From NCBI GenBank assembly GCA_965248255.1, contig CBDFIW010000002.1, positions 276,162 through 340,161 on the forward strand: a DNA stretch of 64,000 bases, written 5' to 3'. Below, piece by piece: positions 22,476-50,089 of this stretch. Source of the stretch: Bryobacterales bacterium. Lineage in GTDB: Bacteria; Acidobacteriota; Terriglobia; Bryobacterales; UBA6623. Position 1 is the first letter of the stretch; every line of letters starts with the position of its first letter. The notes under the pieces were generated by a model that did no database searches, had not been told where the DNA came from, and was given only the letters and a program-made list of their open reading frames with translations. Both the position numbers and the translations under genes were made by a program.

Positions 22476-22570
22476 GAGCCCCCGAAGGGGGCGGCCCAGA
22501 TATCAGCCCAGTGCGTAAGCGCTGGGCGAGAAAGACTCAAAATCGATCGGGCCCTGTAAGGGCGATTCAA
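22476..22570 (+). repeat. REP-like compound palindrome, family B
   Basis: GCCCCCGAAGGGGGC...CCCAGTGCGTAAGCGCTGGG...GCCCTGTAAGGGCGA. Confidence 0.7.
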
Positions 22571-22574
22571 CTAG

Positions 22575-23402
22575 GGCGTGTTAACACTAACGTAGGGTAT
22601 CGAAACGTAGAGCCTCGACGATGAGGGCGAAGTGGAGGAAGGCGAGGAACATGACGTCGAGCTTGTCGAAGCGGGAGAAGATGCGGCGGAATCCCTTGAG
22701 CCGTCGGAAGAGTCTCTCGATCTCGTTGCGGCGGCGATAGAGCGCTCGGTCGTATTCCCACGGCTCCAGGCGGGTGCGCCGGGGCGGCACGACGGGAATC
22801 CATCCGAAATCCAAAGCCAGTTGGCGTGTCTGATCGTCCTCATAGGCGCCGTCCATCAGCAGCGGCAGCGGCTCGGGCAGTGGCCCCAGACCACCGAGCA
22901 AGTTCGCGGCCCTGCTGGGCGTCGTGCGCTTGGCCGGGCGAGAGAGCGAAGGTTATCGCCGTTCGAGCATTTGCGGCAACCATATGAATCTTGGTGGTCC
23001 ATCCGCCGCGGGATTTGCCGATCGCTCGCGGACCGTTTTTTTAACGCGCCCGTGCCGTCGGGATGAGCCTTCACGATGGTCGAGTCCATTGACACGGCTT
23101 CGATTCGGATGCGGGCCAGCTGCTCGCGCTGCAGTTTCTCGAAGACGGCGTCGAGCACGCCGTTCTTCGACCAGCGGTTCATGCGGGTATAAATGGTGTG
23201 CCAGTTACCGAAGCGTTTAGGCAAGCCGCGCCATTTGCAGCCCTGCTCGGCGACATACAACATGGCGTTCAAAACCGTGAGGTTCGGCAGGCTCACATTG
23301 CCGCGCTGGCGGGGCAGGACCGGCTCGATGCGGCGGTATTGCTGCTCGGTGATCTCCATACCTCCGAGTATAGCAGCTTTTGCGACTTAGTGTTAACACA
23401 AC
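22575..23402 (-). mobile_element. IS5 family (IS427-like) element, copy 1, defective
   Basis: 828 bp between CTAG sites; TIR GGCGTGTTAACACT; orfA 22856-23359 (GCKWRGLPKRFGNWHTIY); A7 slip site; extra base near 22900 breaks orfB. Confidence 0.9.
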
Positions 23403-23605
23403 CTAGCCTCCGGCTCACGCCCCAACGACTTCGGACCCTTGCTCCCGGGCCGTGAGGGAGGCTTCCGTCTACCGTCTCGCAACCACCGTGGCGGACGGCC
23501 CCGCCGCTTCCCCTTCCCCCGCGCCAGAATCTCCAGCGTGCCGATCGCCTGGTTCAACAACTCGCGCTCCTGATGGAGCTCCTTCAACACCGCATGCACG
23601 TCCAT
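23393..23605 (-). CDS. Small helical protein with AT-hook-like KRRGRPP motif, putative DNA-binding, copy 1
   Basis: MDVHAVLKELHQERELLNQAIGTLEILARGKGKRRGRPPRWL; RBS AAGGAGAAG; paralog at 49901; stop codon falls within the IS5 end. Confidence 0.75.
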   Translation of the reverse strand: MDVHAVLKELHQERELLNQAIGTLEILARGKGKRRGRPPRWLRDGRRKPPSRPGSKGPKSLGREPEARLC

Positions 23606-23745
23606 GATGACCTTCTCCTTGCATGAGAAGACCACCACGGACACAGGCCCGTTAGAATGGTAACGTCGCTTTCCACGGGTCTGTGCCGTGGTGGCGAAAG
23701 GCCTCGGCGGAAGGTCTATCTTCCGTCGGGGCCGCTACCATTCTA
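23606..23745. ncRNA. Candidate structured leader or antisense RNA (three-way junction), copy 1
   Basis: TAGAATGGTA/TACCATTCTA outer repeat enclosing two hairpins; stems conserved and loops diverged relative to 49762-49900. Confidence 0.5.
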
Positions 23746-23808
23746 CCGCTTTCCCGTCCCTCCTGCTCACATTTCTCGGGAATCAAAGCGAATTCTATGA
23801 CGCCCCCG

Positions 23809-23995
23809 CAGCCCCCGAAGAGGGCGACCCAGTCAACAGCTCCGGGAGCCCAACTGAACTCCCGTCCGCAAAGCGGACACAGGACCTTAGCCCCCGAAGG
23901 GGGCGGCCCAACTAATGAACCCAGGGTGTCAACCCTGGGAAAGCAATCCACCAATCCGAAGAGAGCCCTGAAAGGGGCGACTCACCTCCCTCCCC
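23809..23995 (+). repeat. REP-like compound palindrome, family B
   Basis: GCCCCCGAAG(A/G)GGGCG twice, CCCAGGGTGTCAACCCTGGG and GCCCTGAAAGGGGCGA. Confidence 0.7.
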
Positions 23996-26032
23996 TTGAC
24001 ACCGCACTCAATCCCATGCCCTTCCGGCACACACGCACCACGACCCTCCGCCGCCCCGCGGTTCACGAATAACGGTCCGGCCTTTCATCTGTGTTCATCT
24101 GTGGTTCCTTCCTCCCCCCACTCCTCCAACTTCCGCCGCACCTTGCCGGCGTTGGGGTCTTCGATCTGCTCGTAGATCGCCAGCGCGTCTCGGGCGCGAT
24201 CGGTAGAACCTGCTCGAAGTACTCGATCGCCCGCCGCGTCTCCCCCAACTGCAAGTAGGCGCCGCCCAGGTTGCCCAGCGCCCTCCCTTCCCCATCTTTG
24301 TTGCCCAGCTTGCGGGCGGCCTTCAGCGAGCCTTCCAGCCAACGGACGCGTTCGCGCGGATGCAGGCGCAGTTCGAGCACGTAAGGGGCTACTCCGCGAA
24401 AGCCCTGTGCCAACGTGGCCGCGCGATCGTCCGAGGACGCCTGCTCCGCCGCCCAGGCCTGCCCCGTCTCGATGTGCGCCCGCTCGCGGTCGAACAAACG
24501 CAACCCTTCTAGCACACCCTCACCGCCTTTCTCGTAGGTGTCGTCGGCTTTTGAAGCGACCCTCAGGAAATGGACGGCATGCCGTCCGGCCGCGCCGTAA
24601 GCCTCTTCTTCACTCCGGCCCTTTCGGGCCAGGTCGCGCATCAGGTCGTGCAGCCGGAAGCGCTCGTCCTTAGCGTCATAGAGCACGAGGCTGCGGCCCA
24701 CCAACGTATCCAACTCCCCGTCCTTGAACTCCCCCACCGCCTCGGCCGCCGCCCTGTTGAACGGTGCTGGAAACACCGCCAGCGATCGCCAGCGCGCCAC
24801 CAGTTCCGGGGCGTCGCGTTCCAGCGCCTCGACGCTGTCGTCCAGCACAGCCATCGCGTCGCGTCCTTCAAAGTGCAGCTCCGAGCGCTTCCCTTCCACG
24901 CGCTTCAGGTAGTCACCCACCGCCAGCGCGGGCGACGCGGCCAGCCGGTTGCCCGCCACCCGCAGCGCCAGCGGCAGATCGCCGCATAGCTCGGCCAGAC
25001 TGTCGAGCTGGCCGTCTTCGGCGGGCTTGTCGCCGAGGATCGCTCGCAACAGTGCTACCGACTCGGGCCGCAGTAACTCGTCGAGGTCGACTCGCTTGAT
25101 GCCACCAAGCTGCACCGTCTGCCGCGAAGTGACCAGCAGCGCCGAGGGCGGCTTCGGCACGAGCGGCCTCACCTGCTCGCTGTCACGGGCGTTGTCGGCC
25201 AGCACCAGCACCGCCCGCTCGGCCAGCAGCCCATGGTAGAGCCCGGCGATCTGCTCGGGCTGGTCGGGCAACTTCTGCTCGGGCTCGACGGCCAGGATCA
25301 CGTTGGCCATGGCCTGCCCCGGCGCAAGCGGCTCGGCCTCGAGCCCGCGCAGGTTCACCAGCACCTGCCCGCCGGGATACAGTTCGCGCACCTCCCGCGC
25401 CACGTAGTACGCCAGCTCGGTCTTGCCGACGCCGCCCTGTCCGCCGATGGCGGTGATCCCCGCGCCCTGGCGGTTGCGCAGCCGCGCGATGAGTTGATCG
25501 GCCTGGCTCGTGCGGCCGGTGAAGTCCGCCACGGGGTCCGGCAGTTGAGGGACGATACGGGCCGTAGCGGCGGCTACTGCGGGCTGGGTCGCCACCGAAG
25601 GTCCGGGACCGAACTGCGGTGTTGATCCGGGGTGAAAATGTGCTTCCTGAATAAAGGTCATCCCCGTTGAGTCTCGGGCGTCGACGTTTGCGATAAGCCC
25701 CTGCTGCTGCCAGTAATTCTGAATCGTCGCTTCTGCCCTCGCTTGCTCAAGCAGCGCTGCTATCTCTTTGGCGAGGTGTGGGTCCGCAGCCAACAACTGT
25801 TGCAGGGGTGCGGTCAGCGCCGGGGCCGAGGGCTTTCCGTCCGCTTGTTCGGCGCTCTCTTCCAGCGCCTTGCCCCCGGGCCTCCCGCGTAGCTTGTCCC
25901 GGAGCTGTTTGCCAAACTCGACAACCTTCTCCGCCCCTTTATCCGCAGCCTTGTCGGCCACTTTGGAATGGACCCGAAAAGCGAGACCAGTAGAGAAGGG
26001 ACAATGAACCAGGGAACGGTAAGGAGGTTCGA

Positions 26033-49700: not shown

Positions 49701-49761
49701 TGGCCGTCATAAAATTCGTTCGGATTCCCGAGAAATGTGCGCAGGAGGGACGGGAACGCGC

Positions 49762-49900
49762 TAGAATGGTAGCGGCCCCGACGGAAGACTACACTTCCGC
49801 CGAGGCCTACGCCACCACGGACAGAGCCCGTGGTAAGCGACAGTACCATTCTAACGGGCTTGTGTCCGTGGTGGTCTTCTCATGCGAGGGGAAGGTCATC
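49762..49900. ncRNA. Candidate structured leader or antisense RNA, copy 2
   Basis: Same fold as 23606-23745 with different loop sequences. Confidence 0.5.
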
Positions 49901-50089
49901 ATGGACGTACGTGCAATGTTGAAGGTGCTCCACCAGGAGCGCGAGTTGCTGAACCAGGCGATCGTCACGCTGGAGATTCTGGCGCGCGGCAAGGGGAAGC
50001 GGCGCGGCCGTCCGCCGCGTTGGCTGCGCGAGGGGAGGCAGCCCTCACCGCCCAAGCACCCGGGGCGGAAGCTCTTGCATCGTGAATAG
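49901..50089 (+). CDS. Small helical protein with AT-hook-like KRRGRPP motif, copy 2
   Basis: MDVRAMLKVLHQERELLNQAIVTLEILARGKGKRRGRPPRWL. Confidence 0.75.
   Translation: MDVRAMLKVLHQERELLNQAIVTLEILARGKGKRRGRPPRWLREGRQPSPPKHPGRKLLHRE

Follow-up and report, generated by a model that had tools for sequence, protein, structure and literature searches.

The work described here concerns a small gene and its structured leader in a 64,000-nucleotide stretch of the genome of a Bryobacterales bacterium (contig CBDFIW010000002.1), referred to below as the window. The gene is read from the minus strand (23393-23605), and the region upstream of it (23653-23745) folds into a three-way junction made of an enclosing stem, P1, and two hairpins, P2 and P3. 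The leader of each copy of this module (gene plus leader) is about 128 nucleotides (nt) long. A preliminary description, made from the letters of the window, had pointed to these three helices, to a downstream sequence (box A) complementary to one of the hairpins, to a hairpin over the ribosome-binding site (RBS) and to an open reading frame (ORF) containing KRRGRPP, and all were found where it had placed them. The plus strand of the junction gave a minimum free energy (MFE) of -59.4 kcal/mol (z = -6.15), a value equalled by 0 of 200 shuffled sequences, which bears out the enclosing stem with its two hairpins. The minus strand, the mRNA strand of the gene, gave -53.4 kcal/mol (z = -5.6), still well beyond shuffles. 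Two G-U pairs of P3 are invariant on the plus strand. Coordinates of the features are collected in Table 1.

Table 1 Features of the module and its second copy in the window. Primes mark mRNA-strand readings; SD, Shine-Dalgarno sequence; R1, the covariance model described in the text.
Feature	Position	Strand	Sequence and remarks
Small gene, 70 aa	23393-23605	-	ATG 23603-23605, stop 23393-23395; ORF translation
Predicted sequestering helix, 3' strand	23600-23617	-	GAGAAGGUCAUCAUGGAC; SD region, AUG, codon 2
Predicted sequestering helix, 5' strand	23625-23642	-	GUCCGUGGUGGUCUUCUC; 3' half of box A' plus anti-SD
Candidate antisense promoter	23629-23658	+	AGACCA, 18 nt, TAGAAT (23653-23658); start expected at about 23665, the foot of P2
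Box A	23632-23651	both strands relevant	CCACCACGGACACAGGCCCG on the plus strand; complementary to 23676-23694
P1, 5' arm	23653-23662	+	TAGAATGGTA; pairs with 23736-23745
Hairpin P2	23666-23697	+	TCGC UUU CCACGG, loop 23679-23685, CCGUGG U GGCGA
Box B	23676-23694	+	3' half and loop of P2; complementary to box A
Hairpin P3	23700-23733	+	GGCCTCGGCGGAAG / CTTCCGTCGGGGCC; 14 bp, loop 23714-23719
P1, 3' arm	23736-23745	+	TACCATTCTA; minus-strand reading of 23740-23745 is TAGAAT
Candidate mRNA promoter	23740-23769	-	TGAGCA (23764-23769), 18 nt, TAGAAT (23740-23745); start expected at about 23733, the first base of P3'
Right flank	23746-23805		conserved; A/T-rich runs CATTTCTCGGGAATC..GAATTCTATGAC
Second module copy in the window	49754-50089	junction - (model strand), gene +	junction 49754-49878, gene 49901-50089; model R1, 136.7 bits

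The Rfam comparison proposed in the preliminary description was made with cmscan (22800-24600 against Rfam 15, E <= 10) and returned nothing on 23628-23753. The nearest match, a weak Acido-Lenti-1 hit at 23889-23939 (23.4 bits against a gathering score of 37, E 0.013), lies in a separate repeat. ARAGORN found no tRNA or tmRNA gene in the whole window, and a full-text literature search gave nothing on this RNA element nor on any protein of bacteria that carries this motif. The junction has not been described as an RNA motif, and the protein family that it precedes is uncharacterised. Two other interpretations of the region were tried and rejected. A hammerhead or other ribozyme, prompted by the GAAA between P2 and P3, lacks the core motifs and any Rfam match, and a 47-aa plus-strand ORF (23657-23800) starting from the ATG within TAGAATGG was discarded because copy-to-copy differences in loop and insertion length shift its frame.

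The gene product consists of MDVHAVLKELHQERELLNQAIGTLEILARGKGKRRGRPPRWL and a variable tail. One long amphipathic helix spans residues 3-29, and AlphaFold2 models it with a predicted local distance difference test score (pLDDT) above 90; the AT-hook-like GKGKRRGRPPRWL comes next, and then a variable, disordered, basic tail rich in K, R, G and P. Overall the protein is hydrophilic and basic. Its gene is real and under purifying selection: over codons 1-30, 18 closely related copies (clade 1) gave a ratio of nonsynonymous to synonymous substitution rates (dN/dS) of 0.35, and comparison of clade 1 with two copies of another genus gave 0.27. A family profile of 15 members, run against 1.84 billion proteins, found 2114 cluster representatives with E <= 1e-3, 633 of them with E <= 1e-10. 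The 70-aa protein had no significant match in Pfam (E <= 10), NCBIfam or PHROGs, the family members checked carry no Pfam or NCBIfam family, and among PDB sequences the profile found nothing better than matches to designed coiled coils with E of at least 1. All 54 family members compared share E13, I21, R35, P38 and P39; at least 90% of them have R34, G36 and R37, and W41 is nearly invariant. An excerpt of PMC4822317 defines the AT-hook as a G-R-P core flanked by K/R residues and reports such motifs binding structured RNA as well as DNA; KRRGRPPRW satisfies the definition, as a motif match only. From this we infer that the protein may bind A/T-rich DNA or structured RNA. A homodimer prediction for residues 1-46, run without controls, scored 0.15 against a mark of 0.42.

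Several observations concern the coding sequence itself. Its last three codons and stop are supplied by the end of an inserted insertion sequence (IS) element at 22571-23406, which is bounded by inverted repeats of 20 nt (CTAGGGCGTGTTAACACTAA / TTAGTGTTAACACAACCTAG, 22571-22590 and 23387-23406) and encodes a transposase of IS4/IS5 type in two frames, the first of them containing DUF4096; identical transposase ORFs are also found close to other copies of the module. Many copies (L022, L023, L028, L033, L036) have tandem 7-nt repeats (CACGAAT / CACGGAT) just 3' of the gene, which extend into its 3' end and so encode part of the variable tail. Two copies (G000:C1:395569-395984, that is L042, and locus L022 of G001) carry a one-base frameshift within the AT-hook coding run and have unchanged junction stems.

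The host genome (G000) contains ten copies of the gene, its leader and about 60 nt of upstream flank, at 78-88% identity, and 14 genes of the protein family in all, the remaining four having unrelated leaders. A covariance model of the junction (R1) was built from 20 copies. Searches with R1 found the junction in 10 of the 151 genomes sampled from the order and in 0 of 150 other genomes sampled from the phylum. The strong matches belong to two genera, and a third, divergent subclade (L056, L068, L080) scores 47-53 bits and likewise has a family gene after the junction. Of the 32 copies with an R1 match at E <= 1e-4, 30 have the element at a fixed distance from such a gene. The preliminary description had staked its case on the leader being kept and structured in homologs, and a leader with junction, box A and anti-Shine-Dalgarno (anti-SD) helix does accompany the gene in three sequence subclades from four genera. 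Two junction-like elements of genome G013 (L057:1501-1624 and L064:1501-1623; 36 and 27 bits) have no small gene; they come directly after the stop codon of an ORF of 422 aa or of its partial duplicate. A scan of a genome collection with the P3 pattern gave six loci, all in Bryobacterales metagenome-assembled genomes, and a metagenome scan with a 21-nt core gave one locus. No neighbouring gene is conserved across modules: what their surroundings have in common is IS copies, and the small gene stands alone. Neighbourhood comparison found no transposase, Rep or relaxase travelling with the module, no replicon or rep gene and no phage context. Note that the family member scoring best against the general profile (G000:C3:1930872-1931078) has a TTGACA-N17-TATAAA promoter in its upstream 200 nt, with a 16-bp perfect A/T-rich palindrome, ACAAUAAAUUUGUUCUG..CAGAACAAAUUUGUUG, just upstream of that promoter; by its sequence the palindrome could be an operator for an AT-hook protein.

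Comparison of the copies separates the junction into frozen stems and fast loops. Between clade 1 and the other genus, fourfold-degenerate sites are 0.53 identical and the synonymous distance (dS) is 1.31, that is, silent sites are saturated. The 3' strand of P2 and both strands of P3 are 0.98-1.0 identical in all copies (P3 stem, 0.99-1.0). As the stems keep this identity where silent sites are saturated, the alignments argue that they are under selection. Within clade 1, where fourfold-degenerate sites are 0.899 identical (dS 0.184), identity falls to 0.449 in the P3 loop (Jukes-Cantor distance 1.0) and 0.575 in the P2 loop (0.63), so that the two hairpin loops change three to five times faster than silent sites; the right flank stands at 0.749. 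J1/2 varies too, with an identity of 0.76. Two copies separated by just 1-2 changes in the 77 stem and junction positions have 3-11 differences in the 13 loop positions, with a recent duplicate as the sole exception. The pair of loops differs among all ten copies of the host genome and all five of G105, and G001 has six distinct pairs in its seven copies. The P3 loops TTTGCG, TTTGCC and TTCGTG recur across genera (L010/L029, L038/L047, L035/L048) with the other variable parts differing, which suggests that the repertoire is restricted or that these loop alleles are old. Many P3 loops start with a Y-U-N-R-like tetranucleotide on the plus strand. Some stem changes keep the pairing: the third subclade has compensatory changes in P3 (U-G to A-U, A-U to G-C, A-U to U-A) and compensated pairs in P2, position 3 of P1 pairs as G-C, A-U or C-G depending on the copy, and the two G013 elements without a small gene have a fully compensated P1 (TGAGTAGAGG/CTTCTACTCA).

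The helices that compete in this region prefer opposite strands. In all 32 distinct copies the junction is more stable on the plus strand (mean -51.8 versus -38.3 kcal/mol; gap 5.9 to 19.9 kcal/mol), as the preliminary description had anticipated when it assigned the working G-U pairs to the strand opposite the gene. For P2 and P3 alone the values are -44.2 on the plus strand and -31.6 kcal/mol on the mRNA strand. The weakening on the mRNA strand arises because G-U pairs, including the two invariant ones of P3, become A-C mismatches there. In contrast, 26 of 29 distinct copies have the stronger box A/box B duplex on the mRNA strand (mean difference 4.5 kcal/mol), and in the third subclade the duplex favours that strand by 6-10 kcal/mol. 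On the mRNA strand cognate box A/B duplexes are about 5 kcal/mol better than non-cognate ones, the match being imperfect, and box A tracks part of the P2-loop variation. The opposite wobble biases, toward the plus strand in the junction and toward the mRNA strand in the box A duplex, fit the pattern that a sense/antisense pair would leave in the sequence.

On the mRNA strand box A' (GGGCCUGUGUCCGUGGUGG) has two mutually exclusive partners, B' (the 5' strand and loop of P2') or the SD/AUG region. Both pairings are kept across the copies, which extends to the other copies the second complementarity that the preliminary description had seen downstream of one hairpin. The hairpin it had placed over the RBS, TCTTCTC/GAGAAGG, is present as part of a longer helix of 18 bp that also covers the start codon: in the mRNA-strand fold of the window copy this helix buries both SD and AUG, and its four G-U pairs exist on the mRNA strand only. 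The strand bias of the SD/AUG helix was computed for the window copy and assessed elsewhere by inspection of folds and of an alignment of 28 copies (A6), in which indels shift the register of the helix between clades. In A6 the outer GUCCGU:AUGGAC is near-invariant, and the variants AUGGAU and GUGGAC still pair by wobble. The inner part is clade-specific with pairing kept (UCUUCUC:GAGAAGG, CUUUUCC:GGGAAGG, GGUUCC:GGAGCY, GGUUC:GAGCC). Transcripts modelled from the first base of P3' had A':B' as MFE structure in 20 of 20 copies, and when the first approximately 66 nt of the same transcripts were barred from pairing the MFE structure became A':SD/AUG, again in 20 of 20. When transcripts were modelled from upstream of P1', A':B' with a short 6-bp anti-SD hairpin was the MFE structure in 12 of 19.

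Where the RNAs of this region might start was approached from the P1 arms. The preliminary description had noted that both ends of the junction contain TAGAAT and had read these as possible face-to-face -10 boxes. Every copy linked to a gene has T1, A2 and T6 (TAnAnT) on either arm, and positions 3-5 vary (TAGAAT, TAAAAT, TACACT; TAGTAT, TATACT, TACAAT); judged by sequence, this conservation is the pattern of a -10 box, although a strict promoter scan calls neither site. In a relaxed scan of the mRNA strand TGCRCA-N18-TAGAAT was the best sigma-70-like match, at the same position in 18 of 20 copies and with 8-9 of 12 positions matching, and on the plus strand the mirror site AGACCA-N18-TAGAAT occupied a fixed place in the 20 copies with 7-8 of 12. 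Start sites were placed by the usual 7-nt spacing from the -10 box. The conserved right flank would then contain the -35 element and upstream region of the putative mRNA promoter; it may also be bound by the AT-hook protein or supply the 3' part of an antisense RNA.

We propose, with a probability of about 0.5, that the leader switches translation of the mRNA under the control of an antisense RNA encoded in cis, the two transcripts arising from promoters that face each other. The module in the window would be one of ten paralogous units, each a monocistronic helix-plus-AT-hook gene with a switch leader. The mRNA would start at the foot of P3' and the plus-strand RNA at the foot of P2, and the two would overlap head to head over about 69 nt comprising P2 and P3. 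With A' paired to B' a 6-7 bp anti-SD hairpin would remain and the AUG would be free, an on or half-on state; with A' paired to SD-AUG-GAC, and the anti-SD joining in, a helix of 16-18 bp would form, the off state. The plus-strand RNA, carrying two very stable stem-loops, would pair with the 5' end of the mRNA and thereby remove B', upon which A' would close over the SD and AUG and translation would stop. The hypervariable loops would be the first contact points and would keep each of the ten pairs partner-specific. Convergent transcription may add interference, and the protein may feed back on its own A/T-rich promoter region.

Several results weigh against this proposal. No RNA run appeared among the sequencing runs listed, and the contigs from four runs were metagenomic, fragmented and interrupted at the repeats, the one guessed to be RNA reaching over 23760-23965 only. 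The strict consensus scan found no promoter and no intrinsic terminator at the junction. As the TTGACA-N17-TATAAA site described above shows, another family gene of the host genome has a standard promoter, so a box without a good -35 element is weak evidence. P1 would form in neither of the two proposed RNAs, yet it has compensated variants, and these, together with the fully compensated P1 of G013, argue for some RNA that spans both arms. The covariation score of a 20-sequence alignment was no better than that of shuffled alignments (312 of 500 reached it) because the stems do not vary. The window copy is itself among the 3 of 29 exceptions in which A:B is better on the plus strand. Some wobbles in the junction favour the mRNA strand, namely an A-C found in 6 of 25 copies at the third position of P1, and one change each in the P2 of L034 and L023. 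Finally, modelled transcripts that begin upstream of P1' gave an MFE structure combining the junction with the off helix in 6 of 19 copies, including that of the window. The preliminary suggestion of an RNA switch or sense/antisense pair is partly supported: it gains from conservation in homologs, from the exclusive pairings and from the opposite wobble biases, but its face-to-face promoters are not called by the strict scan.

Some of these difficulties vanish if no antisense RNA exists and the mRNA starts upstream of P1', so that the leader carries the whole junction as a sensor. A folded junction would lock up B', and A' would close the SD and AUG (off); an opened junction would let B' take A' (on), the signal being possibly the small protein, another RNA-binding protein, temperature, or pH acting on the A-C pairs. 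Such a leader accounts for P1 and its compensated variants and for an mRNA-strand junction far beyond shuffles (z -5.6). Its two structures, the junction with the 18-bp helix in 6 of 19 upstream-started transcripts and A':B' in 12 of 19, compete in the MFE folds, so the two states are close in energy, and AT-hooks are reported to bind structured RNA (PMC4822317, excerpt). However, every one of the 32 copies loses 5.9 to 19.9 kcal/mol of junction stability when the mRNA strand is folded in place of the plus strand, and the best promoter-like site would place the start inside P1. A riboswitch aptamer has a conserved junction and loops with covarying stems, whereas here the stems are invariant and the loops and J1/2 vary, the reverse of what a ligand-binding element would be expected to do. 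The plus-strand wobble bias and the faster-than-silent loops are left unexplained. We hold this explanation to be a serious contender that is nevertheless clearly less probable than the antisense switch.

A plus-strand small RNA gene that acts in trans, through a protein partner or guide-like loops, with the anti-SD hairpin working alone, is unlikely. It would explain the plus-strand wobble bias in 32 of 32 copies, the invariant stems of the two copies with a frameshifted AT-hook, the G013 elements that have no small gene and the recurrence of TTTGCG, TTTGCC and TTCGTG as P3 loops across genera. But if box A is included in the same plus-strand RNA, A:B displaces P1 and P2 in the MFE structure, and hardly any space is left for a promoter from box A to P1. 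Pairing on the mRNA strand moreover ties box A to P2, the distance to the family gene is fixed in 30 of 32 copies (R1, E <= 1e-4), and the P3 loop has no partner in cis that recurs at a fixed position. Least probable is an element acting as DNA (a protein-binding or recombination site, a single-strand origin, or a repeat resembling repetitive extragenic palindromes (REP) or miniature inverted-repeat transposable elements (MITE)), as might be suggested by the multiple copies often adjoining IS elements, the perfect 10-bp and 14-bp inverted repeats and P1 arms resembling two copies of one A/T-rich site, since its wobble asymmetry is consistent and opposite for different helices, which is not expected of double-stranded DNA sites, within the host genome the P3/P2 core occurs only in the ten modules, each with the gene at a fixed distance and none independent of a gene as REP or MITE copies would be, and no transposase, Rep or relaxase travels with it. 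Both of these last two explanations are made less likely by the fixed register with the SD and AUG of the gene and by the opposite strand biases.

Set beside known systems, the proposed antisense switch is closest to those that use cis-antisense RNAs. Chromosomal multi-copy type I toxin-antitoxin (TA) loci include hok/sok, ldr/rdl and ibs/sib, and their toxins are as a rule hydrophobic membrane peptides under about 60 aa. An excerpt of PMC5367252 describes the distribution of type I loci as narrow, lineage-specific and duplicated. The module resembles them in its small monocistronic gene, its long structured leader whose alternative folds (A':B' versus A':SD/AUG, predicted in the 20 copies folded) would decide access to the SD, a proposed cis-antisense RNA over the 5' region, several paralogs per chromosome with copy-specific recognition sequences, and a narrow range. 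Unlike a short hydrophobic membrane toxin, its 70-aa product is hydrophilic and basic and belongs to a very large family, so that the likeness to a type I TA leader made in the preliminary description carries for layout but not for the product.

Plasmid copy control by antisense RNA is represented by R1 CopA/CopT, IncI-alpha Inc RNA/repZ and ColE1 RNA I/II. Here too a stable stem-loop antisense RNA would lie opposite a leader, its loops would be the specificity determinants and its binding would pick the leader structure that opens or closes the RBS. The module, however, has no replicon or rep gene, its ten chromosomal copies coexist and its target is a putative DNA-binding protein. Face-to-face promoter pairs are known from coliphage 186 pR/pL, IS10 pIN/pOUT with RNA-OUT and P22 Pant/Psar. 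The module shares with these two -10-like boxes facing each other about 80 bp apart, transcripts that would overlap at their 5' ends and possible interference, but its promoters are predictions (7-9 of 12 matches), and the overlap would consist of two conserved hairpins with the RBS outside it. The P1 C4 and P4 CI RNAs are processed from the same strand as their target and block it. That analogy, also drawn in the preliminary description, is right in that a leader element (B') is complementary to a downstream site (A') near the RBS of the same transcript; yet here the same-strand pairing would open the RBS, the junction is more stable on the opposite strand and phage context is lacking, and the cis-antisense systems (type I TA and plasmid copy control) fit better. 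The module belongs to none of the systems compared, as it has no membrane peptide, no replicon and no Rfam family match.

Some other features lie around the module in the window. Immediately upstream on the same strand is a gene for a 632-aa NB-ARC plus TPR (STAND-type) protein (24063-25961, minus), and a single TTCACGAAT occurs in the window at about 24062-24072. A dispersed REP-like repeat, consisting of a GCCCCCGAAGGGGGC hairpin and then a second hairpin, is present at 22477-22507, 23810-23840 and 23889-23995; part 497-603 of the query has at least ten matches in the genome, and one copy is the weak Acido-Lenti-1 match.

A broader reading, offered tentatively and with clearly less confidence than the antisense switch itself, is that the ten modules are orthogonal sense/antisense switches homogenised by concerted evolution, with only the two kissing loops escaping under diversifying selection so that an antisense RNA would recognise no mRNA but its own, and that they form a new, Acidobacteria-specific relative of type I TA systems whose product would be a nucleoid-binding helix-plus-AT-hook protein in place of a membrane peptide. 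If it is true, the same loop alleles would be maintained across genera.

Acidobacteria are among the most abundant soil phyla and their regulatory RNAs are almost unexplored. The module offers a clean comparative signal in that its stems are frozen, its loops change faster than silent sites and its two competing helices have opposite strand bias. Should the antisense model be true, a new phylum and a DNA-binding-type protein would join the known range of copy-specific, type I-like antisense control, and the module would provide a natural case of many orthogonal RNA switch pairs per cell. The module also gives a first handle on the helix-plus-AT-hook family, which comprises more than 2000 sequence clusters without a described function.

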